A stretch of 64,000 nucleotides of DNA from Isurus oxyrinchus (lineage: Eukaryota), in the NCBI GenBank assembly GCA_026770705.1, contig JANJGN010000003.1, forward strand, positions 184,326,001 to 184,390,000, given 5' to 3'. Every line of letters starts with the position of its first letter. Within the stretch, counting starts at the first letter, position 1. The notes beneath the pieces are model-generated. The model saw only the letters and a program-made list of their open reading frames with translations. It ran no database searches and was not told where the DNA came from. The translations under genes and the position numbers were made by a program. This document shows positions 8,510 through 49,689 of the stretch, piece by piece.

Positions 8510-9706
8510 ATGGATCCTGGTGAGCTAGCTATATGCCAGATTGCCTACAGAGACCGTAGAAGACGGAGGAGAGAGTGACTGATGGTCCTGGCTGTGCAAA
8601 TGCAGGAGCAGTAACCTCATGAAGAAGGGGCAGCAGGAGCTACCGCACACGCTGCCCAGGAGTGACAGAGCTGTGGCTGGTCGGCGCCTAGCGACACTCA
8701 GGGTCAATAGACGTCGCCTTCCATTCCTGCAGTTGACTGAGAACCAGTGTCGCTGACGACTGAGCATGTCTAGGGACCTGGTGGCTCACATCTACCACTG
8801 ACTGAAGAACTTGGTGCCAAGGGGACATGGAGGGCATCCACTGCCAGTGATTGTGAAAGTGACCGCAGCATTCAATTTCTATGCCAGTGGCTCCTTTCAG
8901 AGCTCTACAGTTGACCTCTGTGGGATTTCACAATCCACCACCCACAAATGCATCCATGAGGTCACAGATGCCATCTTCTCCATGGCACACAACTTTGTGC
9001 ATTTTGCCCGGGCCTGGGACAGCCCTGGTCTTGAGATTTCCACAGATGCAGGGTGCGATTGAATGCACTCCTGTGGTGCTCAGGTCTCTGTCGCTACACT
9101 CAGTGGACTTCATCAACTCACTGAATGTGCAGCTGGTATGTGACTACCAGAAATGTATGCTGCAGGTGTGCGCACGGTTTCCAGGGAATGTGCACAACAC
9201 CTACATCCGGAGTCACTCACAGATCCCTGCAGTCTTCCAGGGTCCATAGAGGCTGCAGGGTTGGCTCCTTGGGGACAAGTGCTACCCGCAGAGGCCTTGG
9301 CTGATGACACCCGTGCGGAGGCCTCAGACTGCAGCAGAGCAATACTATCGTGAGGCTCATGCTGCAGCTCTCAACTTGGTGGATCAGACCATCAGGATGC
9401 TGAAGATGCAGTTCCAGTGCTTGGACCAGTCTGGTGGAGCCCTGCAATACAGTCCGCAGAGGGTGTCATGCATCATTGTCGATTGCTGCGCCCTTTACAA
9501 CCTGGAGTTCCAACGGGGCGACGAGCTGGCTGAGGAGGAGATGGAGGTCCTCTCCGATGAGGAGGACGCCGACAGGGATGAGGGTGAGGGGGTCCTTGGT
9601 GGTGACGATGAGGGAATGAGGCTGTCACACAGGCTAGACAATGCAGGTGCGCTCGGGAGTTCCTCATAGCTGCCAGATTTGTGGAGGGTGATTACGACAT
9701 GAAGTG
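8510..9706 (+). pseudogene. HARBI1-like DDE transposase of Harbinger-2
   Basis: 'GHPLPVIVKVTAAFNFYASGSFQSSTVDLCGISQSTTHKCIHEVTDAI' (HTH), 'FPQMQGAIECTPV', 'LNVQLVCD', 'GDKCYP', 'LKMQFQCLD'. Frameshifts. Confidence 0.92.
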
Positions 9707-10401
9707 AGGTGTCCCCATAGATCCTCACATCGCAAATGTAAACGTTTGACTTCAGTCTGGCTTATGGCGGTGCCAATACCCTCTGTGAGAATGCTCCTGT
9801 CATGCAGATGCAGTGGAGGCCCTAATAGTTGCTCGATCGCATATATCTTCAAAAAGCCTCTGAGAATGTCTGACTCCTGTCTGGCCGAGGGCAGCTTGCT
9901 TGCGCTCCATGATCAGGGCCATCTCAGAGACGCAGCCATGAAACTTTAGACGCATCTGATGCTGTGTCCGCCTTCAGCATCTCAGCCCCTTCAGGAGCTG
10001 ATGTATAGCATCACTGGTCGCAGATGCTAGTGTGATAGGGGCCAGCCCAACCATTAAGGTGCTGAGAGCGCACAGAGAGAATGAGAGAACTCTGTGGCAC
10101 CTGCCCACTACATTCTGGCAACAATGACCAGCACTGCCGAGGTGCAGGCGTCAGTAATGTTTCCAGGTAGCGTGAGGCTGGACCATGACTGTGGTCAGAA
10201 GGCCGCACAGAGCACAGGGAAGAGGCCCTGGACTGAGACACCTGCCTTTTATCTTGTGCACAAAAGTTTCACATCGGAGTGACAAGAATACTGATCAGAA
10301 CAAGGAGCCACAGGCAGGGAGACATTCTTAGTAGTTCATTGACAATCGTGAACACTATGTACAATTGATCAACACCCTTGGCCTGGCATTTGCAATTACT
10401 T

Positions 10402-12225: not shown

Positions 12226-12679
12226 GTCTCCCAGATAGCGGTGATAAACTGGTGGCGATGAGTGCTTTGCTGCCGGCTGTATTTTAAAGATGGCAGCCTG
12301 CGTGATGCAACATCAGGATGATAGTGGGCGGGCGAATGAGACCCTGCTCACCATGGAAACAGCGTGTTTTGTGGGAGTGAATAAATAATGAGGCAGGCTC
12401 AGGACGATACCCGCCATTTTTATCAGAGTGTAAGATTCCATTTTCCCGTCTGCTACCGCATTTAGTGCAATTCTGGGAAAATTCCGCCATTCTGTGCGTA
12501 TTTTCCAAGATGAGTTATTAAATAGGACCTAGAGGGGGTCTTGAGGTTTTGTTTATTCCCTCCTTAGCCCTGTGACACAAAAGAAGAGATCACCTAACTC
12601 AGCAAAGACCAGGGGTTGTACCTGAGACTTTCCTTGCTCTGACTCAGTTCCATATTGGACAATGTACTTAGTAATCCAA

Positions 12680-13852: not shown

Positions 13853-14550
13853 GGGCAACATTTTCCCCCTGAGGGGGAAGTGCAGGAGCGGGTGCGGGCC
13901 TTCTGATCAGCGATCCTGGTTGGAGGGGTACCGCCATTTTACATGGGTGGGCCAATTAAGGCCCATCCAGTGTGACATCCGCCAGGAAGCGCTGTACGCT
14001 CCCTGTGAGGGCAGGTGAGGGGATTCTCTCAGCTGGGAGTATGCTTTTTCACGCACGCGCGTGAAAGAGTGCACAGATCTCCCTGAGGCAAAGTGCTGCC
14101 TCAGGGAGATCAGGTCCGATTGAAAACTTTAAATAAAGGTGATTAAAAAAATTCCCTGCCATGTCCCTTCATGTGATACTGTCACATGAGTTGGGACATG
14201 TCCATAACTTTTATTGAAACATTTCATAAAAATTTAAATACCCTCATAAAACCTCATCCCGCCCGTGGATGAGATTTCATGTTTTTTCCGAAGCCCACCT
14301 GGGCTTTCAGCTGTCCACCAACCTTAAGATTGGATGGGCAGTTCCATTAATCACCTTAATTAGTTTTCTAATGTCCTTAATAGGGCGTTGACAGTTCGGA
14401 GGGCATGCAGCCGATTCGGCTGCGTGCCCTCCGAACTGAGAATCTAAATGATGCTGAGTGACATTGGGATTCACGCCGACATATCCCTACGTCATTTTAC
14501 GCATCGGAGAGCGGGCCCCACGCCCGCTCAGCAACTGGAAGATGCTGAGC
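13853..14550 (+). mobile_element. Harbinger-type hairpin MITE, copy 1
   Basis: TSD TTT/TTT, left TIR gggcaacattttcc, internal hairpins shared with seven other copies. Confidence 0.85.
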
Positions 14551-14841: not shown

Positions 14842-17020
14842 TGCCGGGATTTTCTGCTCCAGGCCTAAGCCCAGTGGCGGGGGCAGTAAGTCAGAAGGAC
14901 TCCCACTGCAGAGCTTAGCAAGTAAACAGAGGCATTGCGCTATGTTGGCTCATTGATTATGCAGTCGGGGTTTCCTGGCAAATCATGTGGTGGGGCGGGC
15001 AGAAAGTCACATGCCCTGCCATCATATCTAGGCGCCATATTTAAAAGGCGCTTGGACAGCTACTCATTCATTGCGCCACGAGTTCGGACCTAGACGTGGC
15101 TGCCAGGAAACAGCAAGCACTGGCCCCCAGGTGCCACAATGCCTTGCTGGACACATGACTGCAAGCTGTGGAGGACAGGAGGGTCATCATTTTTCCAAGG
15201 AACGTGAGGGGAAGACCGACTTGTCTCCCCACTCCTGCATGGGAGGTTGCCAGGGTGGTCAGTGCCACTTGTATTCAGAGGACTGCCCTGCAGTGCAGGA
15301 AAAGAATGAGTGACCTAATCCGCGCCACCAGGGTAAGTGAACCCTCTAGCCACCACACTCACCTCACTTAACGGGAACTGTGACATGGTCCTCAATTACA
15401 AGGCCACCATCTGTGCTGCCCTTTGGAAGGTGCTGGGGTGGTGCCTCATAGCCCCAATGCAGTCCATGTGGTCTGCTGGTAGGGAGGCGACCGTGGATCA
15501 CTGACTGAGCCACATGGAAGGCACAAATCTTGGGAGTGCTGGGTTGGTGTAGAGGGCAACTGTGGATGTTGCTGCTGTTGCCATGCCTCTGTTCTTGTCC
15601 TTCTAGCTGCTGGACCTCGTGGGTCTGGAGCGTGCTGCAGAAGTACCCTCGGGGACTAGCAACAGTGCATCTTTCATATGGCACGCATAGTTAGTTGTCA
15701 ATGGGTTGGTGGTGGAGACCGGCAGCATGCAAACAGCACCTGCATCAGAAGTGCTCACAAAACCATCTTCTATCTTCATGCAGGAGAATACAGTGCACAA
15801 CAGGTGCCGGAGGGAGAAGACAGTAGGGGGCATGCCCGTTGTCTGCCCCCTCACACAGTGTGAAGAGCGGGAGGACCATGACTGTGCATCTGTCAGCAAT
15901 GTGGTTGGCCTCCCCCAAGCATCCAGTGAGGAAGCTTAACCTCTACATATTGAAACCTGAGTTGAGGCTCTGTGCAATATAGGAGGCAGCCCATGCTCAT
16001 TCTCTCCTCTTTCCATTACAGGTGCCAGCTGGAAGAGCATGAGGCCAGACCCCAATTCTGAGTCCAGCCCCAGCCCCAGCCCACAGAGAACCGATGACAA
16101 TGATCAGTTCTCATTTGTAGAGTCGTCACAGCATTCACCTGCACTCTCCACCAGCTCAGAGACATCTTGGTAGGTCATAGATCTAGTTTAGATGGGGCCC
16201 CACACTCTGGTGGTCACCGCATGGCCATGTGTCCTCAGCAGGAGGAGGCAGAGACAGCCAAGGTCCCCGGCATTCAGAGGACTGTTGGGAAAGAGGCCTC
16301 TGCCAAGTCCAAGTCTGATGATGAGCCTCTGGGAACAGTCATGGACAAAATGCTGGAGATGCAGCGAGAGGCCAGGGAACATCAAGCAGAGGTGTCAGAG
16401 GCCCTCAACAGAGCGGCACCTGAAGTAGAGGACTCTGTCCACCATCCCTGTACTGTAGTGGCACTGACATGTGCGCAGATGGAGGTCTCCATGTTGAAGT
16501 TTGTGGATGCCATGAAGAACCTGGTCCAGCAGAACGCTCAGTTTCTGCCAGAGATAGGCTTGGACCTGCACTCCAATGCCATGGGCGAGCTTTTGCAGCA
16601 GCTATGTGAGAGGGAGCAGGGCACCTTGACCTCCCTCCTGGTGCCATCTTCCCTCAAGGAGTCAGGGATGAGCCCTCAGGTACCCAAAGGGAGGAGGAGC
16701 ATCAGGCGGACACCTCAGGGGCTTCTACTCAGGGCTTTCCAATGATAGTCCAGGCATTCCGAGTCCCCCTCTGTCTGTGACCCCATTAGCTCCAGCCTCT
16801 GGGCCCATTGAGATACTTCTGCTCCAGAGCAGGAAACCCAAAGAAGGCTGGCACCCTTCAGGCCTCAAGCCTCCAGAGGACAGCCGCCAAGGTCATCAGT
16901 GACAAGAGGGCATAGTGGTCAGCAGGCTGCCTCCACCACTGCTGCAAATGTCGGGGAAGCACCTAGACATAGTGGTACAAGCATAGTACATAATTGTTGC
17001 ACGGTTTTAAATATATCTTT
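14842..17020 (+). mobile_element. Partial Harbinger carrying only the Myb/SANT-like gene (Harbinger-3)
   Basis: TIR-like tgccgggattttc. Myb exon 'AWEVARVVSATCIQRTALQCRKRMSDLIRATR' with donor gtaagt at 15333 and acceptors before 15784 and 16022. C-terminal region homologous to copies 1 and 2. No transposase; right end not found. Confidence 0.78.
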
Positions 17021-22636: not shown

Positions 22637-23092
22637 AGAATTATATAACATACCATGTAGCATTTAACAAATTTTTTTTCAAAATGCAGTTTTCATTTTT
22701 TAATTTCCCACTGTATCCTTTCCTCCTCTGGGTTCCCCCATAATATGCACCTTTTGAAAAGGTAACCTGGAAACCTACTCTCAACTGTTCACCAATAATG
22801 TTCCCCAGTCAAGCACCAGAAAATCTACAAACTTCCGTCACTCCACTGCGAAAGCAATTAAGATTACAAATGTATTGCATAGTGAATTGTTAAGTCAGAT
22901 GTCTAGCCGGCTGGCTGCAAAACGTTATGATTTTTAAAAAGATTTATCTTTGAAGGGTAAGCTTTATGATTTAGCACTCCTGGTACAGAGCTTTGTACAA
23001 TGGCAACACACACAAGAAATTCATGTACAAAGGTTCACACCTGTGACTTATGACTGACTCGATTTTTTTGTCAGCCAAAAATAATAAATCAT

Positions 23093-23196
23093 AATAAAAA
23101 CATAAAATGCTGGAAAAACTTAGCAGGTCTGACAGCATTTGTGGAAAGAGAAACAGAGTTAATGTTTTGAGTCCATATGACCCTTCTTCAGAGCTT
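23093..23196 (-). mobile_element. Short Penelope-like insert with decayed hammerhead, sense to gfod1
   Basis: Minus strand reads CTGAAGA-A-GGGTC atatg GACTC-AAAA-CATT-AACTC followed by the shared gctgtcagacctgct tail. Confidence 0.78.
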
Positions 23197-23634: not shown

Positions 23635-24554
23635 TTAGTATAATAGTGACATTCTGCTGCGACGCATAGCCTCACTGATCAAATATGCAGGGCTAATCTC
23701 AGGCTCTTCTGTCATTATCACAATGTTCTGCCATTCACCAGTCTCGTTTGATTTTTTAATGGTGTCCACTACACACAGTGCGTACAAGCAATCCTCAAAT
23801 GTTGCTGCCATAGTTAGTGGTCTCCCATCCCAGGTCCGTCGATCTTCTTGGTCTTGGAATGCTTGCCGAATAGCTTGAACCATCATGATAGTACCCCTGA
23901 GGAATGGGGATGGGATATCCCTGAAAGCTTTTTCTGGGAGCAATGCATTACTTACAGGTGTTGAGTCTTCTAAAATCAATTCCTTTTGAGATGCACTATT
24001 TCTTTGTCCATACAAGTCGCTACCATTTACCATTAATCGGCCAGTGGACCCCACCACAATGATTTCTTGTTTAAAATCCCCAGGGACATTGAAATTCAAA
24101 GTCACAGTACAGCACACACCACCTTCTAAAACCATCTGAAAGGTGCAGAAGTCATCACTAGTGATCTGACGGATCCCTCTGATATGCTCTGTCTGCTTCA
24201 CAAAAGTTTTCAGGAAGCCATGGACTTTGGCAGCTTTTTGGCTGGTCAGAAAAGTCAAAAGGTCAATAATGTAGCTTCCAACTGAATGTAGCCCTCCACC
24301 CCCCATCAGGTCATCACAGCTCCAGTTGTATTTCTTGCCCAAAAGACTTCCACTGTGAACCTGGACCTCACAGATCAATAAGTCCCCCACATATCCTTCT
24401 TGAATCATTTGCTTCATCTTAACAAAAGCAGGGAGGAAACGGAGAACATTACCCATTATACTCATGAGTTTGGGATAATAATGTGCTGCTGACATCATCC
24501 TAAACGCATCCAGAGGAGTTGCAGCTCTGTCACAGATGACATTTTTCCCAATTC
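23635..24554 (-). CDS. gfod1: Glucose-fructose oxidoreductase domain-containing protein 1, last coding exon
   Basis: Intact ORF (G)[29 protein letters not shown]...[24 protein letters not shown], very close to the vertebrate GFOD1 C-terminal part as I recall it. Polypyrimidine tract and AG acceptor (ttttcttttcattttcaattag) at 24555-24576, phase-1 intron. Confidence 0.96.
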
Positions 24555-24884
24555 CTAATTGAAAATGAAAAGAAAATACATCAACAATGCAGACACAAAT
24601 ACTTACGCCTACTCACAAGCATAGTGTTTAACCACAACTAGAGAACAATTGATTTCTCAGGTTTTTCAATCAACAGAAGAGAAATCACATTCTTTTGCTA
24701 AAATATACTTTATTAATAAAACACCTGAAAGAACATTAGAAAACATTTCAAAATGGCCATCACATAAAGTGAAATGATATTCAAGTTTTCTGTATAGATC
24801 ATATTGCACTCTGAGGGAGGCGCCTCAATACAATAAGAGGAATGTTACCAACATTTCAAAGTGGTCACTACCCTTGATATTCAA

Positions 24885-26169
24885 GGGTAGAATTTTCCCC
24901 TTGTCGGGGGGTGGGGGTGGGCGGACCCGATCGGCACCCCCTATCAGGTCCACGCCGCCATTTTATGTGGGCGAGCTAATTAAGGCCAGAAGAGCGCAGA
25001 AATCTCCCTGAGGCACCTCTGTGTTTTAAATTTTAACAGTTCAATAAAGCGTTGAAAATTTTTTTATGACATGTCCCCTCATGTGAAACTGTCACATGAG
25101 TGGGACATGTGCATTAATTTCAATAAAAAATTTTGAGAAAATTTAAAATCATTCATAGAAACTACATACAATATTTTCATCTCAACTACTTTCTGTGGTA
25201 CCGAATTCTACAGGCTCACCACCCTCTGGGTGAAGAAATTTCTCCTCATCTCAGTCCTAAATGATCTACCCCATATCGTCAGACTGTGACCCCTGGTTCT
25301 GGACTCCCCCACCATCGGGAACATCCTTCCTGCATCTACCCTGTCTAGTCCTGTTAGAATTTTATAGGTTTCTATGAGAACCCCCTCATTCTTCTGAACT
25401 CCAGCAAATATAATCTTAACCGACTCAATCTCACCTCATATGTCAGTCCCTCCATCCCAGGAATCAGTCAGGTAAACCTTCGCTGCACTCCCTCTATAGC
25501 AAATACATCCTTCCTCAGATAAGGAGACCAAAACTGCACACAATATTCCAGGTGTGAGCTCACCAAGGCCCTGTACAATTGCAGCAAGACATCCCAGTTC
25601 CTGTACTCGAATCCTCTGGCTATGAAGGCCAACCTACCATTTGCCTTCTTTACCTTCAGCGACTGGTGTACAAGGACACCCAGGTCTCATTGCACATTCC
25701 CCTCTTTCAATTTATAGCAATTCCGATAATAATCTGTCGTCATGTTTTTTCTATCAAAATGGATAACCTCACATTTATCCACATTACACTGCATCTGCCA
25801 TGCATTTGCCCACTCACTCAGCTTGTCCAAACCACACTGAAGCATCTCTGCATCCTCCTCACAGCTCACCCTCCCTCCCAGCTTTGTGTCATCTGCAAAT
25901 TTGGAGATATTATATTTAATTCCCTCATATAAATCATTAATATATATTGTGAGTAACTGGGGTCCCAGCACCGATCCCCGCGGTACCCCACTAGTCACCT
26001 GCCATTCGGAAAAGACCCGCTTATTCCTGCCTGTGGATGAGGTTCCATGAAAAATGCGAATGCCGTCTGGGTCTTTGCCTGCCCGCATATAACTGACGTC
26101 AGGATGCGTGTCATTTTACACCTCAGTGAGTGGGCCCCACCCCTGCTCGCCAAGCTGAAGATTCTCCCC
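24885..26169 (+). mobile_element. Harbinger-type hairpin MITE, copy 2, interrupted by CR1
   Basis: TSD CAA/CAA, TIRs gggtagaattttcc / gaagattctcccc. Confidence 0.85.
25154..26025 (-). mobile_element. CR1 LINE 3' fragment nested in MITE copy 2
   Basis: 'VTSGVPRGSVLGPQLLTIYINDL..GI...ISKFADDTKLGG' on the minus strand. Tail-like catagaaac at the left edge. Confidence 0.9.
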
Positions 26170-27436
26170 CAAGTTTTCTACCTAGATCATGCTGCACCTG
26201 AGGTGCTTCAATACAATCAAAGGAACTTTACAAACATTTCAAAATGGTCACCATAGAAAGTGCAATGATATTTAAGTTCTCTGCATAGATTATGTTGCAA
26301 TCCTCCTAATATTTTCTTTGACTCAGCATTCATTATTTTGATTATGCCTCTTGGAAATATTTTGGGATCTTTCCTATATCATAGGCATTATATAAATGCA
26401 GGTTTTTGTGGGCCTTGCAATTTTAGGGCTCTAAGGCCAGGCATGCGGGGGCTGGCCCGACATCATGGAATGGGTACAGCACAGGAGACCATTTAATCTG
26501 TGTCACCAATCCAACTAGCTCCACTCCCCCACTATTTTCCCCCATAGCTGTGCCAATCTTTCCCCTTCAAGTACTTATTAATTACCCTTTGAAAGCCACA
26601 ATTGAATCTATCTCCACCACCCTCTCAGGCACTGCATTCTAGATCCTAACCACTTGCTACACAAAGAATTTTTTCTTCATGTCACCTTTCGTTCTTTTGC
26701 CAATCACCTAAATCTGTATCCCCTGGTCTAGATGCTTCCACCAATGGAAGTTTCTGTCTATCTATCCTGTCTGGACCCATCATGACTGAACACCTCTATC
26801 AAATCTCCTATAAACCTTCTCTGCTCTAAGAGAACAATCCCAGATTTTCCAATGTATCCATGTAATTGAAGTACCTCATCTGTGGAGCCATTCCAGTAAA
26901 TCTTTTCTGCATCCTCTTTAAGACTTTCACATCCTCCCTAAATTGGGTGCAATACTTCAATTGTGGCCAAACCAGTGTTTTATATGCCCAGGATATTGTA
27001 TGTTTTTTTAACCACTTTCTGTATCTGTCCAGTAATCTTCAAAAGATTTGTGCCCATATACTCCCAGTTCTCTCTGTTCCTGCACCCCCTTTAGAATTAT
27101 ACCCTTGAATTTATATTTCATCTGCCAATTGCTCACCTATATTGCACCAGTATATGTCCTCTTAAAGTCTACTGCTAGCTTCCTCACTGTTCACTACACT
27201 TATAGGTTTTGCGTCATCTGAAAATTTTGAAAGGGCGCCCTGCACACCCAAGTTCAAGTTATTAATATATCACAAAAAGCAGTACAGACCACTGGGGAAA
27301 CCCAGTGTATTCCTTTTTCCAGACTGACAAACAGCTGTTCACCATTTCTCTGTTTCCTGTCCTTCATCCAACTTCATATCCATGTTGTCACTATCCCTTT
27401 TATTTCATGGGCTTCAACTTTGCTGAGAAACTTGTT

Positions 27437-30488: not shown

Positions 30489-31234
30489 TGTGGGTTTAGG
30501 TCCTTAAAACAGTGAAAATAGGTCTGTTTGAACTCAGCACTAATTTCAAATGGCTTAGCAGATTTGTGATTTACAGTGCTGGAGCAGGAAGAGAAGCTAC
30601 TGCAGGTGATACTCTGACTATGATTAGGTAGATAAGAATGGAACCATGAGATCTGCTGGAAATGGAGGTGGGATTTCCACCGGGTCCCACCTGCCATTTT
30701 AAAATGTCTACCGAGTCATCCTGACTCAGTGAAAATCCAGGCCTTAGCAAACAGGGAAGCCAGCACCTGTGAAACTGCACCCCAACACAGTAAACTTCTA
30801 AAACAAAGGTTTTTTTTTTCATCCAAATACAAACCTTTGAGCTGCAGTATTGAGTTCTACTACCTTAGGCAGTACAGCTCAAAGGACTTCTTACCACAAT
30901 TAATTGGTAGGAATCTGTTACAATATTTGTGTACATACTTTCCTGCGAAACTGACAACATAATGACATTTTTTTCTCTCGCTTCAATGTAATAGTGCTAT
31001 TTGTAGATAAATGCAAATCAGAGGCTGTTAAATGTTTAAATAGTGGAAAGGTATCCATTAGATAGCACAAAGCATCTCTTATTCATTGAGTCAGCAATCG
31101 CCCCCTTGGGCAGATGGTAGGTTTGTAATCGTCCATATTAAGAAGCTTTATTGAATGGCAGCATGAATCTGCAGACAATGTAGGCATGAATGTATTTAAC
31201 TCCTGAAAGTGCTTTGAAAATAGCACATCACATA

Positions 31235-31838
31235 GGGGAGAATTTTCTGGGCGGGAGCAGGCACAGGCGGACCTGCCGCCATTTTACATGGGCGGGCCAA
31301 TTAAGGCCCGCCCAGCGTGACGTGTACCCATAAGCGTCAGCGCTACCTGTGAGGGCAGGGGAGGAGGGAAAGTTGGGGTATGCACGCGAAAGAGCGCAGA
31401 AATCTCCCTGAAGCACAGAGCTGCCTCAGGGAGATTACTTTGATTATGAAAACTTGAAAGAAAGAATAAGAAAATTAATCAGACATGTCCCCTCATGTGA
31501 CAGTGTCACATGAGCTGGAACATGCCAATGAATTTTAATAAAAATTTTTATTAAACTTATAAACCCATCATGGAACCTCATCCCGCCCGTGGATGAGGTT
31601 CCATGAAAAATGTGAAGGTTGTCTGGGCTCTTCGCCTGCCCACCAACCTTAAGGTTGATGGGCAGCCCTGGCGATAACTTTAATGAGGTGATTAATGGCC
31701 TTAACAGGCCTTTGACAGTTCAGCAGGTGCGCAGCCGACTCCAGTGCGCGCCCGCCAAAGTGAAGATCGGAATGAAGCGTGATGACATCGGGACGCGTCA
31801 TTTTATGCCCGCCGCATGCCAACCAGAAAATTCTGCCC
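31235..31838 (+). mobile_element. Harbinger-type hairpin MITE, copy 3
   Basis: TSD ATA/ATA, TIRs ggggagaattttctgg / ccagaaaattctgccc, all internal hairpins present. Confidence 0.9.
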
Positions 31839-31909
31839 ATAATTTTTTCAACAGGGATGAAATATCATAAAACTTGCTTTTTTTAAAAGCAGTGAAAATA
31901 GGAATAGGC

Positions 31910-32732: not shown

Positions 32733-33385
32733 GAGGAGAATTTTCTGATTATCAGGCGGGCCGGTCAGGGGCGAGTGCAGGCGTGTGGGCGCGGAGCCGA
32801 TCGCTGCCCACGATCGACTCCGCGTCACCATTTTATATTGGCCCACCCAGCGTGACGCATGGCCAGTAGCACTCAGCGCTACCTGTGTAGGTGGGGGGAA
32901 GAGGGACAGTTGGAGCCTGCGCTCTTTTGTACGCATGCGCATGAAAGAGCACAGAAATCTCCCTGTGGCATGGAGCTGCCTCAGGGAGATTAAATACATA
33001 TTAAGAATTTTTAATAAAGGAAGATAAAAATTATTTATATATGCTTATGGATTGAGCAAAAATTATTCATTTATTTAATAAAACCTTCAGGAAACCTCAT
33101 CCTGCCCATGGATGAGGTTTCCTGACAAATGCGAAAGCCGCTTGGGCTCTTTGCCTGCTTGCCAACCTTAAGGTTGGATGGGCAGGGTTGATTTGTACTT
33201 TAATTGGTTTTTTAACGATCTTAACAGCCCTTTGACAGTTCGGCTGTCGTGCAGCCACCTCCGGCACACGCCCACTGAACAAGAGATCTAAATGACATTG
33301 GGATGCACAGCCGATGTCACTGTGCATCATATTACGTGTCGGCATGTCGGGCCCGCCCCCGCTCGCTGACGTCAAAATTCTGGCC
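32733..33385 (+). mobile_element. Harbinger-type hairpin MITE, copy 4, in CR1
   Basis: TSD ATG/ATG, TIRs gaggagaattttc / aaaattctggcc. The central catgtgac hairpin is missing. Confidence 0.87.
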
Positions 33386-34800: not shown

Positions 34801-34991
34801 AAAACAAAAAACTGCGGATGCTGGAAATCCAAAACAAAAACAGAATTACCTGGAAAAACTCAGCAGGTCTGGCAGCATCGGCGGAGAAGAAAAGAGTTGA
34901 CGTTTCGAGTCCTCATGACCCTACTGCTGAAGGGTCATGAGGACTCGAAACGTCAACTCTTTTCTTCTCCGCCGATGCTGCCAGACCTGCT
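34801..34991. mobile_element. Penelope-like insert with inverted 5' end (hairpin)
   Basis: 16-bp TSD gatgataccaggaata at 34785-34800 and 34992-35007. Perfect inverted arms 34860-34922 and 34931-34993. Confidence 0.88.
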
Positions 34992-35973
34992 GATGATACC
35001 AGGAATATGTTTATACACACCAGGAAGGGATTGATCGGCTGGGTCTCTTTACTCTTAAAAAAAACTGAGGGGTGACCTAATTGAGGTCTTTAAAATTCTG
35101 AAAGGTTTTGATAGAGTGGGTAGTGAGAGAATGTTTCCTTTTTTGGGGAAGAACATAACAAGAGGCCATCAATATAAGATAATCACCAAGAAATCCAATC
35201 GGGAATTCAAGAGGAAACTTCTTTCCTGAAGCAGAAGTGAGAATGTGGAACTCGCTACATAGGGAGCGGTTGAAGCGAATAGAATAGACGCATTTAAGGT
35301 GACGCTAGATAAGCACATGAAGGAGAAGGGAATAGAGGATTACAGTACTAGATTTAGATTTAGGAAAGATGGGAGGAGGCTCAAATGCTGAAATGGTCTG
35401 TTTCTGTGCAGTATGTCCAATGTAATCCTATGTAAATTTGTTTAGTCTGCCTAAAATGCTGCTATTCAAGTATTCTATCCTCATTATGAATTGAAGTATA
35501 ACACTACCAATGCCTATTTTAGTGCTGGATTATGAACTAACTGAAAAACATGTTTTTTTGGGAACCTGTATTGGTCAATTTGGTTTTCATTTTTCCTCTA
35601 ATGTGGCTCTTCGAGACCAGATCAATAAAAGTCATTAGAAAAAAAGAGGAAACTACATCAAACAGCTTAGAAAATATTGCTTTAGATAAGGTCATGTCAA
35701 GGAAAGAACATTGAGTAGCTCTTTTCTTGTTTGCGTTTGCACTTTTGAGCAACAAATCTGCCACTCCAGCTTCGCCATCAATCACTGTGCTGTATTTTAC
35801 TTACAATCAAATCTACTGAACTCCCACAAAATTATTTTTGCTGTTCATGCTCTTTTCTATCATATTCACCAACTCCCTGGCATCTGCCAGCAATGATTCT
35901 TAGCCACTAGACTTTATGACAAAATGGATTATGGAACTACAAGATGGGATTATCATCACAGTAAACTGAAGAT

Positions 35974-37429: not shown

Positions 37430-40400
37430 GTGGGGATTTTTCTGTGTCCGCTGGTGGCAGACATGATAGGTGGCATGCGCAGACAATATGGTATGATCTG
37501 ATTCATGATGGTGGGAAGGCAGGTTGCGATTTGTCCACTCAGCCCGCCAACAGCAGGCCATGTTTTCCACCAACGGTCATTGGGAGCTCATTTTAATCAG
37601 CATATCATTTAAAGGCCATCCTGCCAGACTCTTGGACTCCCGTCGGATCATCCTTCCACGTAGGCGGGAAAGCACATCAACATGTTTCACAACAACACAC
37701 AGGCAACGTGCACTTGGCAGCCTTCACTTTGGGGGAACTGGAGGTGAGTGAACAGCATCGTTCTGCAGAGCTCGCCAGGGTCGCCTGTTACTTTGCAGGC
37801 TTCAGGGGGCGCCGGGGTAAAGTGCTGCCCTGCCATGGAAGCGACTGTTGTCGGGGGGGGGGGTGTCCGGGGGCAACTGCTGCTAAGCCCTTGAGGCAAC
37901 TGTTGTCGGAGGGGTGTCTGAGGGCAACTGCTGCCCAGCCTTGGAGGCGACTGTTGTCAGGCAGGTGTCGGGGGTCAACTGCTGCCCAGCCTCAGACTGT
38001 GAGTTGGACTGCACTTGTACAATCTCTTCGCCAACACTGGCCATGTAGCAGTCACTGCTGGAGGCGCTCACAGCCCCTTCCAGTCTCAGCATCCTGGTTA
38101 GGAGCAGTCTCCCTCATGTTGCAGGTTGACAGGGCAGCCATGCAGCACACTCATCTGTGGCTATCAAAGGGGTGGCCAACACTCTCCGAGAAGTGTTGAG
38201 GGACCACCACACAGGGCCAGGAAAGGTGCTAAGTACACCCATACTAACCACGTCTCTCTCTCTCTCTCTTTCATGTCACAGGAGGACCACATCAGGAACA
38301 TGGAACATGATGACTTAACTGTATGCCTGATAGTCTACAGAGACTGTAGAAGATGGAGGAGACAGCAACTGAGACTCCTGGCCATGCAAAGGCAGGAGCA
38401 GCAACTTCAGGAAGAAGGGGCTGCTGGGGCACCCACATACACTGCCCAGGTGCGACAGCGAGCCATGGCTGGGTGGCGCCTAACGATGCCCAGGGTCAAT
38501 AGACGCCGCCTGTCATTCCTGCAGATGACTGAGAACCAGTGTCGCCAATGACAGTGCATGTTTAGGGACCTGGTTACTCACATCTGCCACTTACTGCAGG
38601 ACTTGGGCCAAGGGGACATGCAGGGCATCCACTGCCAGTGGCTACAAAAGTCCCCAGCATCACAGATGCCAATCTTCGGCCAATTCGATTCACTCCATGT
38701 GATATCAAGAAACGGCTGAAGGCACTGGATACTGCAAAGGCTATGGGCCCTGGCAATATTCCGGCAATAGTTTTGAAGACTTGTGCTTCAGAACTTGCCG
38801 TTTCTAGCCAAGCTAATCCTATACAGCTACAAAACTGGCATCTACCCAGAAATGTGGAAAATTGCCCAGGTGTGTCCTGTACACAAACAGCAGTTCAAAT
38901 CCAACCTGGCCAATTACAGCCCCGTCAGTCTACTCTCGACAATCAGTAAAGTAATGGAAGGGGTCATCAACAGAGCTATCAAGTGGCACTTGCTTAGCCA
39001 TAACCTACTCACTGATGCCCAGTTTGGGTTCGCCAGGCCCACTCAGCTCCTGACCTTATTACAGCCTTGGTTCAAACATGGACAAAAGAGCTGAACTCCT
39101 GAAGTGAGGTGAGAGTGACCACCCTTGACAGCAAGGCAGCATTTGACAAAGTGTGGCATCAAGGAGCCCTAGCAAAACTGGAGTCAATGGAAATCAGGGG
39201 AAAACTCTCTGCTGGTTGGAGTCATACCTAGCACAAAGGAAGATGGTTGTGGTTGTTGGAGGTCAGTCATCTCAGCTCCAGGACATCACCACAGGAGTTT
39301 CTCAGGGTAGTGTCCTCAGCCCAACCATATTAGCTGCTTCATCAATGACCTTCCTTCCATCATAAGTTCAGAAGTGGGGATGTTCGCTGATGATTGCACA
39401 ATGTTCGACCATTCGCAATTCCTCAGATACTGAAGCAGCCCATGTCCAAATACAGCAAGACCTGGACAATATCCAGGCTTGGGCTGACAAGTAGCAAGTA
39501 ACATTCACGCCACACAAGTGTCAGGCAATGACCATCTCCAATAAGAGAGAATCCAATCATCGCCCCTTGATGTTCAATGGAAATTACCATCACTGAATCT
39601 CTCACTATCAGCATTCTAGGGGTTACCATTGCAGAAACTGAATTGGACGAGCTATATAAAAACTGTGGCTACAAGAGCAGATCAGAGGCTAGGAATCATG
39701 CTATGAGTAACTCACCTCCTGACTCCCCAAAGCCTGTCCACCATCTACAAGGCAAAAGTCAGGAGTGTGATGGAATGCTCCCCACTTGCCTGGATGAGTG
39801 CAGCTCCCACAGCACTCAAAAAGCTTAACATCGTCCAGCACAAAGCAGCCCGCTTGATTGGCACCACGTCCACAAATATTCACTCCCTCCACCACCTACG
39901 CACAGTAGCAGTAGTGTGTACCACCTACAAGATGCACTGCTGGAATTCACCAAGGCTCCTGAGACAGTACCTTCCAAACCCACGACCGCTACCATCTAGA
40001 AGGACAAGAGCATCAGATAGGTGGGAACACCACCACCTGGAAGTTCCCCTCCAAGTCGCTCACCAAACTAACTTGGAAATATATCGCCATTCTTTCACTG
40101 TCGCTGGGTCCAAATCCTGGAACTCCCTTCCTAACAGCATTGTGGGTGTACCTACACCACATGGACTGCAGCGGTTCAAGAAGGCAGCTCACACGACCTT
40201 CTCAAGGGCAACTAGAGATGAGCAATAAATGTTGGCCCAGCAAGCGAAGCCCACATCCTGTGAATAAATAAAAGAATGGTGATGTCCCTTGAACTGACAG
40301 TGAGTGGAGGCCCTGTGGATGTGTGATGGGTTTATGAGTTGAGAGTGATGAGAAAAGTGACTTACCCTGGCGAAATGGAGGAGTTCTTCTTGCAGCACTG

Positions 40401-40869
40401 GGTGGTTGTGAAGGGCATTGGTGCTGACCATCTCTGTCACTGCCTCCTAAGCTGGATTGGTCACATTGCTGCCCGTCCTGCGGCTAGAGCGGGGGTACAG
40501 GACATCCCGGTGGGCCTCCACAGCATCCAGCAGTCACTCGAGGGACCCGTTGTTGAAGCGGGGGGCTGAGATCTTTTTTCCTTTGCTGGCCATGTCTCCT
40601 GGGCTGCGGTGGTGAGCTGGTGGTGATGAGCAATGTGCTAACGGCTGCCTTTTAAACATGGCGGCCAGCATGATGCAATGGTGGAGTGATAGCGGGCGGG
40701 CAAAGGAGAGCCCAGGCGCTAAAGAAGCAGCGTTTTTCCTGGGAATGTGTAAGTAATGTGGTGGGCTCAGGACAATACAACGTGAAAATCCACCATTGCC
40801 ATCGGCGAGTGGAATGCCATTTTGCCCATCTGCTACCCCATTTAGTCTAAATTTGGGAAAATTCCACCC
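37430..40869 (+). mobile_element. Internally deleted Harbinger (Harbinger-4, close to Harbinger-2) with a LINE in place of its middle
   Basis: TSD TTT/TTT. Left ~1.2 kb aligns with 7478-8850, including the transposase N-terminus 'RVNRRRLSFLQMTENQCR'. Right ~600 bp aligns with 11887-12488 (Myb exon 1). Confidence 0.88.
38645..40272 (+). mobile_element. CR1/L2-clade non-LTR retrotransposon, 5'-truncated RT to 3' tail
   Basis: 'WKIAQVCPVHK...NYSPVSLLSTISKVME', 'QGSVL.P', gttcgctgatga (FADD). Tail ..cccacatcctgtgaataaataaaa. Confidence 0.9.
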
Positions 40870-42913
40870 TTTATCTCAGGCTTCAAATTTTGCATGGGCT
40901 GATGAGATAAGTCTTCTTTCTCTCTCACTCTCATTCTCTTTCTCTTTGTCTGTCTGTCTCATTCTCTGTCTGTCCATGTTAGTTGTCAGATTCCAAATTC
41001 TAAGTGGGAATGGGCTCACAGCACAAAAGTACCCATAACTCAACACTTGTTGGCACTAAATGAAAAACCTCACTCAGAGAAGTTGTAAGAATGACAGACA
41101 TGGGAAATTAAAATGTCACACTGGTACAGGACAGGATTAAGGCATCAGGCAGAAGAAGTAATTTTATTCTTTCTCTGACCTATTTTCTCCATGGTCTGGA
41201 ACAACCTGTGAACAAAATTTCACTCTATCTGTTTAATGCTATATCAGGCCTGGAAATGCTTGATGGGCTGTTAAAGAAGGCTTCACTCTGAATCTGACCT
41301 ACACCAATATTCAGTGGATAAAGTAATAATATTTTGAAATTTGCATGAACAACATTACTGCATGTCTTATTTTGTTTCAAAGCAATCTTTTGCAAACTAC
41401 AACAAGCTATTATTACTCACTATCCTTCATGGTGCATTGCAAAACAGAGTCACAATTAAGGAGAAATATAGCAAAATAAACATATCTAACTGAATTGCAG
41501 TAAATATGATTGCCACAAACATAAACTGAAGGAATGAATAAAGTGCCCTAAAATAACGCAAGATGGAATCATGACTAAAATTGAATATTTGGTCCATAGT
41601 TCATTTAGTTTTCATTTACATTGGTTCTTTGTTTAAAGTAAGTTCCTTTTACAAGTACCTCCACAAAACGGAAGCTACATTATCATTAAAAAAACCCAGA
41701 ATATTTGACTCAAACATTGGAAGCAACTGCACAATTCTACAATGAAACAAAGGGGACGACTTTAACCTTAAAACATCTTGAATTACTTACCTGCCCTGGA
41801 GCCACCTGTAAGTGATTCCACAATCCATGACTTTAAAGTGCACACCTGGCAGGGGGTGCAAAATTGTCACAGGCTAGCATAAGTTAAAGCTAGCCTGCTC
41901 TACTTAAAGCCGCTGCTTCTCCTAACAGGGTACATTGTAGTTGCAGCAGATGCTGGAAGTCATTCTACAATTGATTCTGCCCTGTGGAAGATGCAAGTTT
42001 GGCACAACATGGGTGAGAGCAGGTTCTGAAATTTTCTCACACTGCACTGGAGGCCTTGGCTGAGGAGGTGCAGAGCAAGAAAGAGAGGTCCTATAGACAA
42101 ACCATCAGAAGGCATTGTGACCAGATGGCCATGGTGGTCATTACCAGGAGTCAAGGTCCAGTGAGTTGGAATCACTGCTGCAAAAGTTTCATTGACCCCA
42201 AACAAATGGTCAAGATCAATCGACGCATTTCAAATGGATATCTGTCCAGTGTCGGCTATTCAACTGTGGCAGACATTTCACCTAAACACATTGATTCACA
42301 CTGACAGACTTCCCTCACCTAATAGGGCAACAAGAGGCAGCAGGTGCTAACCGGCATGGGGCAGGCATGTCTAGATGTCCTTACCCCAAAGAGGGGACAG
42401 TGCTTGTGATTACTGGAGCAGCCATTGTTGAGGCACGGTGGTGCTGAAACAATAGAGATGATAGAAGATCTTCATACATAATCCTCCTTATATCCAACTT
42501 CCCCTAATCCTACACTCTCTTCTGATTTATAAGCATGCACCTCTTATCTACCTCATACTTTTCAACAATCCCCTCATTACAACTCTACTCTAGTGCCTTT
42601 CTCCTTTCAGATGCTGAAGACCTGCAACCTGACCAGGCTTTCATGGAAGAGCAACAGATGGAAAAGCAAGATGACAGGAATGTTAGAGAAACACCATCAT
42701 TCAAACTCAACCTTGCAGCCACCAACTCTGATACTGACACTGCATGCACCTTACAGGATAGCTAAAAGGCTGATATGCACATGGTGAGACATCAGACATC
42801 AATGGTCTGCAGCCATGGCTTGGAGCAAGGTAAGTACAGGTGCCAACCTTTTGGAGGGTATGGTCACATACCAGCTTTGTTGTAAAAGATTCAGATAAAA
42901 GACTACAGATGAG

Positions 42914-43729: not shown

Positions 43730-45758
43730 GGCCCGAATTTGCAGCCAAACAGAAGGGTTCCTCACCTTAGCCAAACTGATGCCAGAGCCCCAATTCCTCA
43801 AGTCCCACCCCAAAGGCAGCACCAATTAATTTTGCATGGGGTAGGGGTTGGGGGGAATAAGGGTAGGTTGTAATTCACACATCCACAGTTAACTGAGGTA
43901 GCGGCACATTTATAAGTGCAGCTGCCTTGATTCAGGAGCAATTTTCATCACCCAGGTTTCTGAACACGAATCATGGGCTTTAGACATTTGAAGAAAAGGT
44001 CTAAATGTACCAGAATTCTTTGGAGAGGTTAGGTACCCTTTTGGAGTGGTCAGGGTACCCTTTTGGACAACTCAGGTATCCTTTTGGAGAGGTTCAAGTA
44101 CCCCTTTGGGATTTTTAACAGTAGGCATTAATGTGCATAAAACATGGATAAACTCTGTGGAACTATGAAGCTGTCATGCCATTTAAATCCCCTGCCCTTT
44201 AAATTTTGAAAAAGAAACAGCCTGCTGTGACTTGCAGTTGAAAAAAGTAGGTGCTTGTAAGTTCAAAAGATGTTTGTTGACATATGCCTGAGGGTTTTCA
44301 CTATAGTATTAGTGCTACTTGACTGCTTCCGCAAACTATCATTATCAGACTGGGAGCTGTAAATTCAGTTTCACTGAGCAGTTATAAAGTAAATAGCTGT
44401 CTTTGATGTGCGGCTGTGAATACAAATGTTTGTTTTCATAAGGGATTAAGTACTTGAAGGAAATGTTTGCTTTTTGATTACAGTGGGCAAAATTTTTACC
44501 TCAGCGGGCACACGCCCAACCCGCTCAAACATAAAGTGATGCATGTTAACGCCGGGCGAGCGTCCTGATGTCAAGATGCAGTCATGCAATATTTCAGTCG
44601 GCAGGTGCGCGCTGGAGTCGGCAGCGCACCCACTGACAATTAAGTCATGTTAAGGCCATTAAGAAGATAATTGAATGCAATTTTTCGCAGCCCATCCAAC
44701 TTTACGGTTGGTGGGCAGGTAAAAATGCCTAGCGGCCTTTGCACCTTTTAGGAAACCTCGTCCATGGGCAGGATGAGCTTTCCTAAAGCAAATAAAAATA
44801 AAATAAAAAATTTAAAATTTAATTAATAATATATCCCTGCTCATGCAACAGAGTCACATGAGGGGACATGCTTTATTACATTTTTCTTATCTTTATTTTT
44901 TAAAAACTCTTCATCTCCCTGAGGCAGCTCTGTGCCACTTGCATTCCCCCACCCCACTCCACCTGCACAAGCACTGAGCACTACCGCTCACATTGCACAT
45001 CGTTGCCTTCTGGCCTCAATCGTAGGCAGTGATTGGTTTCCTAACCGCCCCCACCCAGCCCTGCTGAGCCCACCCGACAAGGGCGAAAATTCTGCCCAAT
45101 GAAGTCTATAATAGATACATAGAGCTTTATTTTATTCCCTCTCAGCATGGCTCCCGAAGTCTGCACATGGCGGATGCTGGGTGAGTTGGCATAGAGGGTG
45201 TAAGGGCAAAGGGTGGTGGGTGTGGGTCATGGGTGGCCACGAGTTGGCATTAAGTTGGCATAGAGGCTATAAAGGGCAATGGGGCTGAGTGGAGGTCATG
45301 GATGCCATGAATTGGCATAAAGTTCTCATGGCGTATATGAGGGGCCATGGGTGTTAGGTAGAGGGGCATAAGTTGGCCATGGAGGATGAGGGTTGTTGGG
45401 GTGGGTAGAAGGGCATAGGTTGGCATGGAGGCTTGAAGAGACATGAGTTGACATGGATGAGACATGGGGAGTGGGTGAGGTGTGAGGGGTAAGGGCTAGA
45501 GGGCTGTTTTTTGTTTTATTATTTTTAATACAACTGGAACAAAGTCCCACACTAACAGGGCAGGCCTTTTGAACAGCTTGCCTCAGCACCCGACATACCC
45601 GGTGGCTGAATCTGCAATGGGGGTAACCCGACTCCATTAGCACCTACCCCTCTGGAATGAAAATCCAACTATTCGAGTCACTTTCTCCCAAGTCAGGTTT
45701 GTGGAGTTGCAAAATTTCCCAACTCTGCACATCCAACTCAGGAGCAAAAATTCAGCCC
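43730..45758. mobile_element. Non-autonomous Harbinger-type element (second family)
   Basis: TSD CTT/CTT, TIRs ggcccgaattt / aaattcagccc. Related in reverse orientation to 61099-62088. Confidence 0.78.
44485..45097 (-). mobile_element. Harbinger-type hairpin MITE, copy 5
   Basis: TIRs gggcaaaatttt / aaaattctgccc, TSD AGT/AAT. Confidence 0.85.
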
Positions 45759-46657
45759 CTTTTCAGCCTTAATTACCTTCTCGCTGCCAATCTGTCAGCC
45801 ACTGATGCATTTGCACCACCCGCACCTCATAACTTTTGTCAGCAGCAGGATGATGTCGGGACATGTTTCAATGTCATTTTACCTGTTCACCCACCTCCAT
45901 TCCTGCCACCATGGGACCAGTAAATTTCAGCCCATAGAAACTAGTTATAAACTAGTCTTCCATGTGAAAAACAAAAGCCTGGCCTACCTGGCCAGGTGGA
46001 AGTAAAAAATTCCATGGCACCATTCCCTGAGCAGGGAGCTCTCCAAATATCCTGGCCTACTTTTGACCACCCACTGATGGCTATTGTCCATTTTGTTTGT
46101 ACAGGACAACTATTAGGTTTGCTGGGTTCATGTTTATATCAGCTACTAGGAAATTCCAGAACTATATAATCTCTTGAAAACAAGTCAACAAAATAATCAG
46201 CTTTTTTTAAAAAAAGCACTTTGTTATGCATTTTATCTTCCGATCAGATATATGGACAACTTCTGGTAGAATAAGGGGAAAATGTGCAGCTTTAAATCTA
46301 AAAAAAAAGCCCATTGAATTTGTTCAATGTCTTCCTGTGTTTTTACAATTTCCCTCCCTTCAGAGCTTCCCCTCTACTATTGTTCAAATTATCAAGTTAC
46401 CCAAACAAGTGGATAATTGGCTGGTCTGCATCAAGATAACTAGAGACCAGCAGCTTTATGTATTCAAATTGGCAACTGACTGGCAATTGTACAGACACTG
46501 GGGTGGACTTTATGATCAAGATTAAAACATTTCTAGTGACTTTAACAGTGAGAACGATGGTTCTAACCTGAGTGCAGATACATGGTCCTGAAATCACCAG
46601 GGGATCATTAACCAGGAATATGGGTTAAATGGGAAAACTGGAAAGCTGCAATTCAAA

Positions 46658-47272
46658 GGGGAGAATTTTCATGTCGGCATGCGGGGGCAGACCCAGCACA
46701 CCAACACATAAAAAATGATGCACAGTGACATCGGGTGTGAGTCCCAACATCACCGTGCATCATTCAGATCTTTTGTTTGGCAGGCATGTGCCAGAGGTGG
46801 CTGTGCACCTACCGAACCATCAAAAGCCCATTAAGGCTGTTAAGAAACCAATTACAGTAATTATCAACGTTGCCCGTCCAACCTTAAGGTTGATGGGTAG
46901 GCAAAGAGCCCAAGCGGCCTTCGCGTTTTTCAGGAAACCTCATCCATGGGTGGATTGAGGTTTCTTGAAGGTTTTATTAAGTAAATAAATATTTTTTCCA
47001 CAATTCATAAATATGTCCCAGCTCATGTGACACTGTCACATGAGGGGACATGACTATATAATTTTTATCTTTCTTTATTTGAAACCTTCAATTTGAACTT
47101 AATCTCCCGGAGGCACGGAGTTTCTGTGCTCTTTCACCCGCATGTGCCAACTCTCCCCCCACCACCCGCACAGATAGCGCTGAGCGCTACCGGCCGTGCA
47201 TCGCGCTGGGCAAGCTTTAATTGGCCCATCCACATTAAATGGATGATCACAAGCAGCAATCGGCTCTGCACC
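46658..47272 (-). mobile_element. Harbinger-type hairpin MITE, copy 6, one end lost
   Basis: ggggagaattttc TIR, ccaaccttaaggttg and catgtgacactgtcacatg palindromes. Confidence 0.83.
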
Positions 47273-48890
47273 AAAGAGATGTGCAATTAAAGGGAAGTGA
47301 CCAAAGAAAGGGGCCAAAAATCTTAAATGGGAAATATTCAAAAGAGATTTCGAGATAATAATAGTATTTAGCAAGACTGTAAAGGGTAAGAGAATTGACA
47401 GTCAAAATGAAAATAGAGTATGGAGGCATCATATATAGTCAGCATGTGAAGAATCTGAAGCTAGTGAAGAAGCAGCCCAGCTCTGAGCCTTTTATGGCTA
47501 GAGAAGTGGACATTATACAGCTTGACATGAGTGAGAGATTTGTTGCCCTCTTTGGCATTCTAAGGTATCTATCCATTGGGAGCAGTGCAGCATGTCTTTA
47601 ATAAGCCTGAGGTAAAAGTAACGGTAAAGGGTGACTTTGACAACCACCAGCAATTCGATGTCTGCACTGGTACTAGGCTGTGGGGCAGATTGATTTCTAA
47701 GTGAACTGCAGTTCCTCAGATAAATCAAGGTAAGTGCTTCCGTTCAGGTGTCAATAGACATGGGTAAGCACAGTGCTGCAACCTCCCAGCCTGACATCTC
47801 GCAATTTCTCTTCTTTATTTTTCCTAAAAATATCAGCATTCCAGAATTGATGCAGAATAAGGTACTGCCAGTACCACTGGCACAAAACCTTGTCCTTTAA
47901 GTAGTCACAAGAAACTTGACTAGAAAAAGCTGCTATGATGAATTTAAGATTACTTCCCAAAATGCTTTTAATAATCCTTTAAAGTTTAAATGCCTCCTTC
48001 AAAAGTTGCCTGGTACTCCTGAAGGCCCTTTGAGATGTATATCTTTAGAAGTCAAGGTGGAAACAGTGTTAAAGATCAAAACTTGTGAGAATGTTTTAAT
48101 TATTGCACGTCATCCTGCCTCCATTCTTCTTCTTCTCTTGCCAACAGCACATTTGGCAATTAATTGCTTTCAATGTTTTTACATCCAGCAGATCATTTGC
48201 ATTGTTTATGTAACAAAGACCTCTTTTTAATATAGACAGGTCATTAGCCTGACCAAGAGGGATCAGCTGGATATGATGCAATTGGGTGCAGGGGTGCACC
48301 ATTCCACTCCACTCCCATTGGATGCGAGCAGTCTATGGTTTTCAAACCAGTATTCAGAGGCCAGAATTCTCATCTTTGCTTGCCAGGATAGATCCTTGGG
48401 GAGGCACCAGAGGTAACAATGTGGTAGTGGCATAGGAAGCCATTGAAAGAGATACTCTTATGATTAGCTAGATGAGAATGAAACAAGGTAGCTAGTACAG
48501 TCCCATTCAATTGGGCAACAGTGAAAAGGCATTGGATAGGGATTGTATGGTCAACCGTGTCAAAGGCTGCAGATGGGTCAAGAAGGACGAGAAGGGATAT
48601 TTAGTTTAGTTACAGTGACGTAGTTACAACCACGTAAAAGGTGTTTCATTAAAGTGGTCCATGAGCTAAAAATTTGTATGTATGTAGCCCGCTTTTAATT
48701 TATGAGTTTATTTTAACCTAGCAGACAAACTTATGTCTTAAACAAGATAAACGTTAGTTTATTACAAAACTACTGCTGGAAGTTACTTAGGTAAAAGTGA
48801 TAAAATTATTAACTAAAATACAATTACAAAGATTTAAAGTAGATAAAGATAAAAAGATACTTAAAGATGAGATTTCATATCTATCTCTAT

Positions 48891-49544
48891 CGAGAGAATT
48901 TTTCTTATGGCGGGCGGGCTGGGTGGGGGCGGGCACGGAGCCGATCACCAACCGTGATTGGCTGTGCACCGTCATTTTATGTGGGCAGGCCTATTAAGCT
49001 CAGTGCTACCTGTGCGGGCAGGAGGAATAAGGAGAGTCAGTGCCTGTTCTCTTTTGTGCATGCGCGCGAAAGAGTGCAGCAATCTCCCTGCGGCATGGGG
49101 CTGCCTCGGGGAGATTGAACAGAGAATAAAACATTTTAATAAATAATGTAAAAAATTATTTAAACATGTCCCCTCACATGAGTTGGGACATATTTGTGAA
49201 GTTGGGAAAAATTATTTATTTATTTTATAAATGCCTCAGGAAACCTCATCTCGCCCGTGGATGAGGTTTCCTGAAAAATGCAAAGGCTGCTTGGGCTTTT
49301 CGGCTGCCTGCCAACTTTAAGGTTGGATGGGCAGCATTCTCAACTAGTTTAATCACTTTCTCAATGGCCTTAATAGGCCACTGACATTTCAGCGGGTGCG
49401 CAGCTGCCTCCAGCGCGCACCCGCCGAATGTAATATCGAGATGACACGCGATGACATCGGGACGCATGCCCTACATCATCGCGCGTCATTTGACGTGTTG
49501 GCATTTCGGGCCCACCCCCACACGCTGATCTGAAGATTCAGCCC
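48891..49544 (+). mobile_element. Harbinger-type hairpin MITE, copy 7
   Basis: TSD TAT/TAT, TIRs cgagagaattttt / aagattcagccc. Confidence 0.85.
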
Positions 49545-49689
49545 TATGATCCAGGCCCGTTGCTTGAATTCTTTCTTTCCAAAGCAAAGGGGTTGAAATT
49601 TGGCTTAGCAGCAGTGATAGCTTCAGCAGTTGACTATTTGGAGGTTTCCCTTTTCAGGTGGACTCAACAAGTCAGCAGGTTTTTGGAGG

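Follow-up and report, generated by a model that had tools for sequence, protein, structure and literature searches.

The two-ORF vertebrate transposon Harbinger3_DR reportedly carries subterminal palindromic sites for its Myb-like protein, made up of one short repeated motif. The element described here lies at positions 31235-31838 of the window, the whole 64,000-nucleotide stretch of Isurus oxyrinchus DNA that was analysed, and its family is probably likewise of the vertebrate two-ORF Harbinger type, with dyad elements near its ends; in the shark family, however, the stems number about 11, are unrelated to one another in sequence, measure 5-21 bp and carry compensations. For the Myb-like protein of Harbinger3_DR a role in nuclear import has been given (Sinzelle et al. 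2008, as related in a citing paper). The Tourist-like MITE mPing of the PIF/Pong group offers a second parallel, being a deletion-type non-autonomous element of a two-protein system whose internal sequences tune mobility (PMC9921582, PMC10288884). In contrast to the shark family, mPing has TWA as its target, and the accessible text of the mPing paper is without the terms 'hairpin', 'palindrom' and 'secondary structure' and reports no shared internal promoting sequence (PMC9921582), whereas the internal array of the shark family is conserved across families that are 56-90% alike. As regards cartilaginous fish, no Harbinger was reported in the elephant shark, and other members of the group were proposed for checking in the part of that study available (PMC9179366).

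Within the PHIS groups, as set out in the available text of Han et al. (2015, PMC4482050), a TWA target marks strict PIF/Harbinger, CWG marks NuwaI, and NuwaII has a TNA duplication with C and G flanking it. The shark family is a non-autonomous, Nuwa-like transposon of the PHIS/Harbinger superfamily, a placement that follows from its terminal inverted repeats (TIRs), its 3-bp target-site duplication (TSD) and the ends that it has in common with an element encoding a DDE_Tnp_4 transposase; being short (693-707 bp), non-coding and present in high copy number, it is also a MITE. A 3-bp TSD was seen in 60 of the 84 copies with both TIRs recognisable, 46 of them at the exact boundary, with CAT in 9, ATA in 8, ATG in 8 and TAT in 6; C precedes the TSD in 33 of 52 copies and G follows it in 35 of 52. 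Strict PIF/Harbinger was rejected, with TWA in 2/60 TSDs, and so was NuwaI by target site, with CWG in 7/60; for NuwaII the flanking C and G were found, but TNA occurred in only 2/60. The family shares with NuwaI and NuwaII, as far as these are described in the text seen of PMC4482050, the 3-bp TSD, TIRs that start GG, relatives of about 4.5-5 kb with a DDE_Tnp_4 transposase, and a Myb/SANT-like ORF, the latter in the window's own remnant; the L354 transposase core resembles the Nuwa rows of Fig. S3 of that paper by eye only. It differs from both in its mixed TSDs, which are neither CWG nor TNA. The string 'palindrom' is absent from the main text of PMC4482050, where no hairpin array is described for Nuwa. 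The genome has undergone a very large Harbinger expansion, judged by first-look transposase candidates, with a mixed 3-bp target flanked by C and G that fits no published PHIS group exactly. Searches of the open literature, work on Harbinger in sharks among it, turned up no description of a covarying-hairpin arrangement; the family may already be catalogued in repeat libraries.

The element at 31235-31838 (forward strand, 604 bp against a 700-bp consensus) belongs to subfamily C, one of eight defined below. It is bounded by the TSD ATA at 31232-31234 (forward, preceded by C) and 31839-31841 (forward), and by TIRs at 31235-31250 (forward) and 31823-31838 (reverse), the left one being 16 nt long and 94% complementary to the right one. 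The insertion is also found in a second species, where one contig spans the left junction and another, about 2% different, spans the right. The first-pass annotation had described a string of five local palindromes, occurring in the same order in at least eight copies. The string is real, and all five stems stand in that order in this element, although the list was too short: about 11 stems run end to end. Stem b (31289-31314) is a perfect 10-bp repeat common to the Myb-side end of autonomous relatives. The five modules named before are stem e (31398-31439), kept in 8/8 subfamilies; stem f (31483-31525, inner and outer parts), part-deleted in subfamily B and decayed in G and H; stem g (31568-31606), 16 bp in this copy; stem h (31636-31665), which has another sequence and register in autonomous relatives; and stem i (31697-31710), extended to 13 bp in subfamily E through one-sided changes. 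Stem j follows at 31719-31759 and is CpG-decayed in this copy, and stem a together with one arm each of stems k and l has been deleted from it (by eye). Deletions that hit hairpins were noted by eye elsewhere too: besides stem a and the arms of k and l here, they removed 10 bases of f in subfamily B and, in subfamilies C and D, the tip of another stem that lies between c and e. Folded as DNA, the copy reaches -144 kcal/mol (z = -13.2 against 20 shuffles).

Stem g recurs at seven places in the window, with 14 matches over the two strands where 0.2 would be expected; the window holds seven near-complete copies and one split copy in both orientations. The other copies lie at 13853-14548 (forward, E-like), 24886-26270 (forward, TSD CAA, right end placed by eye), 32734-33385 (forward, subfamily B, TSD ATG), 44485-45097 (reverse, subfamily A), 46657-47273 (reverse, B-like), 48892-49545 (forward, from a small B-like cluster) and 54374-55036 (reverse, subfamily D). 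Not all of them have the five modules: by eye, the copy at 33087 is without the second stem, and those at 44748 and 46939 have an incomplete first stem. The split copy is broken within stem g, where about 860 bp that include a reverse-transcriptase-like reading separate its halves. Copies are locally enriched over 13853-55036: the 64-kb window has seven near-full ones, and the sampled genome about one in a stretch of that length. The window also contains decayed two-ORF Harbinger-type elements at about 2200-6420, 7478-12490, 16100-17000 and 37430-40870, parts of which are 67-81% alike. The one at 7478-12490 (forward, ends by eye) is an autonomous-type element of another family with a DDE_Tnp_4 transposase on the forward strand and a Myb/SANT-like ORF on the reverse, whose Myb_DNA-bind_5 match (E 7e-4, 20 bits) falls under the Pfam cut-off of 21.7; its ends have single imperfect inverted repeats of 9-13 nt only and do not extend the array. 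At 34860-34993 the sequence is self-complementary over 134 bases (97%) and adjoins a repeat that recurs at 11675-11801 and 23086-23192. An exon of the GFO/IDH/MocA type lies at 23635-24612; we take it to be that of GFOD1, and the copies would then presumably lie in the first intron of that gene.

Evenly spaced samples of the 4.98-Gb assembly, 800 kb in total, gave 42 matches, 12 of them near-full copies, and extrapolation from these 12 gives about 75,000 full copies genome-wide. One 29-base stem pattern has 11,234 exact matches in the genome, a lower bound on copy number. A set of 264 non-redundant near-full copies was assembled from eight DNA searches, the transposase loci described below and the samples, most of them being best BLAST matches to a query and not a random draw. 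Of these, 208 fell into eight clusters (A-H) of 17-30 copies; the consensuses do not draw on the 14 copies of three small clusters or on another 42. The eight consensuses are 693-707 bp long, 56-90% identical, all start GG and carry 58-85 CpGs each. The divergence of copies from their CpG-corrected consensus is 6-10% at non-CpG sites and 27-36% at CpG sites, and the sampled subfamilies are therefore old. Perfect hairpins of at least 7 bp number 3-11 per consensus against about one in block shuffles, the counts for G (4) and H (3) being close to chance.

Eleven stems (13 helices, 156 pair positions) were anchored on their loops, and the 149 pair positions paired in at least four of the eight consensuses were kept. 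As the stems were picked by eye and filtered by this pairing rule, the resulting conservation figures (88% of cells paired overall and 93% in A-F) are biased upward. At 26 of the 149 positions more than one Watson-Crick type occurs, amounting to 30 extra types in all. When right-hand columns were re-dealt among positions with the same majority pair, so that each column kept its history, 6.0±2.3 extra types were obtained, with a maximum of 17 in 20,000 permutations; the covariation proposed earlier thus survives a lineage-preserving control. Extra types numbered 20 against 2.1 in A-F only, 11 against 1.2 with the two outermost pairs excluded, 4 against 0.4 in the inner six pairs and 8 against 1.0 in the central stems named by the first-pass annotation, and all six subsets lay above every permutation. 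True double changes in stem g separate A/B/C-E/F. Most of the real compensations lie in stems that the first-pass annotation had left unnamed. The pair catggaacc/ggttccatg at 31569 had been taken for a family-level compensation, and it is not one: in subfamily C this pair is an A·C mismatch, the left base is A in 27/29 subfamily-C copies, about 99% of the depth of sequencing-run contigs at 31573 reads A, and the G at 31573 (forward) that repairs the mismatch is private to this copy. This private change, together with 477 compensated-looking cells that CpG decay has produced in inserted copies, is what could be said for the covariation being an artefact of CpG decay on both arms, of alignment or of pair choice. 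Against this, the compensations among masters are mostly transversions and exceed every permutation in the six subsets, and we regard an artefact as the least probable of the explanations considered. Covarying hairpins in these DNA transposon ends are real and statistically solid; the dyads stand at rigid spacings along the ends, and they covary from one master subfamily to another.

The spacing of the array is conserved along with its sequence. Distances are identical in 8/8 subfamilies between g and h (63.5), i and j (35.5), j and k (57) and k and l (48), and nearly so between a and b (43.5-44) and between h and i (53-54), while the c-e and e-f spacings vary by 9-10. At the right end, inserted copies have 0.086 indels per substitution; the masters show a single gap block over at least 200 substitutions where 17.2 were expected (P about 6e-7). 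By parsimony, changes per column among masters amount to 0.40 in inner stems, 0.64 in loops, 0.73 in outer stems, 1.24 in terminal linkers and 1.79 in central linkers. These figures bear on the notion that GC-rich palindromes were perfected by mutation alone, in the absence of selection. The template-switch footprints described below are in keeping with such a process, but inner stems change three times slower than terminal linkers, indels are depleted about 17-fold, and CpGs persist in the masters at 58-85 per consensus, so that purely mutational perfection is improbable. DNA-level selection is supported for sequence and spacing, and the fixed lengths of the unpaired linkers point to a DNA scaffold; DNA-level selection on the symmetry of the arms is a further step that we infer. 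No single central stem is essential, since subfamilies G and H, with at least 26 sampled copies each, are without stem f and most of outer g, and subfamily C was amplified despite its mismatch in g.

A PF13359 search of the genome returned 73,236 first-look transposase candidates, and 20 loci of 10 kb around the best DDE_Tnp_4 matches were examined. They contain elements of 4-5 kb with ends that can be aligned to the MITE: 12 transposase-side ends, upstream of the transposase, correspond to MITE positions of about 400-700, and nine opposite ends, one of them aligned over the TIR only, correspond to positions 1-135 and lead into a Myb-like ORF (by eye). The end consensuses of these relatives form stems a, b, h, i, j, k and l and show additional compensations. 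Stem g is short in them, its loop and right arm being conserved while the left arm pairs over about 4-8 bp; in the MITE, by comparison, the left arm now reads as the reverse complement of the right one. Neither stems c-f nor a true autonomous partner carrying them were found among the 20 transposase loci. The idea that the modules are novelties internal to the MITE was therefore mostly wrong, as stems a, b and g-l derive from the subterminal ends of transposase-bearing relatives. Nor was a single palindromic site for a Myb partner, shared by the stems, supported: no common half-site was apparent by eye beyond a GC-box-like 7-mer.

The relatives also bear on whether the stems were selected as RNA structure, in a transcript or a small-RNA precursor. 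The folding potential is strong, and transcripts of plant MITEs can form hairpins and small RNAs, as stated in the accessible part of PMC12595863. However, in the relatives a TATA-like word and the start of the Myb ORF are found downstream of stems a and b (by eye), the unpaired linkers are of fixed length, and inserted copies showed no structural constraint. Among distinct mismatch types, G·T (18) does not exceed A·C (24; P=0.44), so that wobble types are not enriched and no G·U strand bias is seen, and the compensations, mostly transversion-type, mostly cannot pass through G·U. Two chance-level Rfam matches were found in all, and only one of these lies inside the element. RNA-structure selection, which had been offered earlier as one cause, is thus not supported and appears very unlikely.

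Template switching within hairpins leaves multiple compensations, stem extension and inverted loops as footprints (Mönttinen and Löytynoja 2022, PMC8794818), and all of those listed in the accessible text of that paper are present in this transposon family. In PMC8794818 the process is described for RNA genes, and the string 'transpos' is absent from the text available; here, in contrast, the substrate is the end of a DNA transposon. Inversion of the loop was analysed at stem g only and in assembly sequence only, using the asymmetric flank as an anchor. The loop has 14 reversed genomic matches against 6,292 normal ones; flank scoring confirmed 10 of the 14 as inversions, each in a copy of its own and with A, B, C and F as the best-scoring subfamilies, while the other four are normal elements read from the other strand. 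Loop inversions at this one stem thus amount to about 0.16% per copy; none was present among 79 local copies with an intact loop. As reversal of a 7-base asymmetric loop would otherwise need several simultaneous substitutions, switching mediated by the arms is the plain reading of these inversions. In subfamily E, five of the six bases left of stem i have changed so as to complement the unchanged right flank, which equals that of D, making stem i a 13-bp perfect repeat. Compensations comprise 10 of transition type and 20 of transversion type, non-stem columns having a ratio of 196:225; the share of transitions expected is 60% with two independent steps (P=0.003) and 47% with one templated step (P=0.2). 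Some compensations nevertheless took two steps, as mismatched intermediates persist in the consensuses (k10 in E; l1 in C and G).

Copies already inserted in the genome were analysed for the same paired changes. Among non-CpG pairs of the multiple alignments, 2,043 changes were one-sided and 51 were compensated against 39.7 expected, with a non-partner control ratio of 0.98. Pairwise realignment retained 262 of 350 matches of at least 150 bases, the other 88 being too short in alignment or more than 15% divergent, and gave 2,496 one-sided changes and 74 compensated against 52.1 expected (P=0.002; 21,767 non-CpG cells), an excess that is an upper bound, as unrecognised sub-lineages add to it. 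Compensation beyond chance makes up less than 1% of stem changes. Inserted copies thus decay near-independently, and maintenance acted on the masters and not on host-resident copies. Stems in copies mutate about 16% less than context-matched non-stem sites, and the direction is the same in 43 bystander copies. Selection at the level of copies was considered as the reason, but symmetric templated repair would then give hundreds of compensated cells, and an excess of only about 22 was seen; hidden variation among masters is therefore the likelier cause. Partner CpGs in stems had 387 complementary double decays against 439 expected (477 against 521 after realignment), same-strand double decays being slightly high (485 against 450); a complementary-decay deficit was absent from non-partner CpGs and from the 43 bystander copies (43 against 39.9).

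The first-pass annotation had also proposed hairpin-templated correction in master copies. Loop inversions, a one-sided stem extension and transversion-type compensations are direct footprints of such a process, but in dead copies templated repair occurs much too seldom to maintain the stems. In a toy model, the copies fit an arm-to-arm correction rate, per stem and unit mutation rate, of about 0.2-0.5 events, and neutral masters would need 20-40 to keep 91-96% pairing over the master lineage. With copy-level correction so rare, the masters must have either selection on symmetry or much stronger correction. Our tentative preference is for an account in which the double changes arose by template switching from one arm to the other, and in which the sequence, spacing and arm symmetry of the masters' DNA ends were kept by selection. 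The hairpins or cruciforms would form at least transiently, one-step templated changes would survive in masters by avoiding an unpaired intermediate, and the array may serve as a landing platform for a complex of the transposase and the Myb/SANT protein.

A somewhat less probable account, which we nonetheless consider a serious possibility, is that selection acts only on the primary sequence and spacing of double-stranded binding sites and that symmetry is a neutral by-product of gap repair. Masters would pass repeatedly through gap-repair synthesis, with strong hairpins corrected arm-to-arm far oftener than in dead copies. The rigid spacing and conserved loops agree with this, as do the position of most compensations at the outer parts of stems, the loss of stems f and g without harm in G and H, and the templated events themselves; homology-dependent repair, moreover, adds mPing copies in yeast, according to the accessible text of PMC10288884. 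If the paired positions are neutral, however, the toy model calls for a rise in correction of about 40-200 fold that is specific to masters, and the stems are without a common half-site. Selection on symmetry is slightly favoured because inner pairs, too, are compensated (4 against 0.4) and because stem h survives in the relatives with a different sequence and register. Against it speak the losses of f and much of g in G and H, the mismatch carried by C, the 12% of consensus cells that are unpaired and the lack of enrichment of wobble-type mismatches. Beyond the preferred combination of templated writing and selection on symmetric ends lies a bolder proposition, which we hold to be rather unlikely: that a clan of eukaryotic cut-and-paste transposons has ends consisting of a fixed-pitch array of extruded DNA hairpins that are read by shape and evolve in an RNA-like manner through one-step template switches.

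As a rule, covariation is read as proof that an RNA fold is functional. Here it is strong in a DNA transposon that lacks an RNA signature, which is a caution for covariation scans of repeats. The family also provides a natural measure of hairpin-templated mutation, given by the rate of loop inversion at one stem. Structured DNA ends are known mainly from HUH-type elements; selection on symmetry itself would mean that eukaryotic transposons of the DDE type use them as well, and the array may be relevant to how some MITEs come to number in the tens of thousands.
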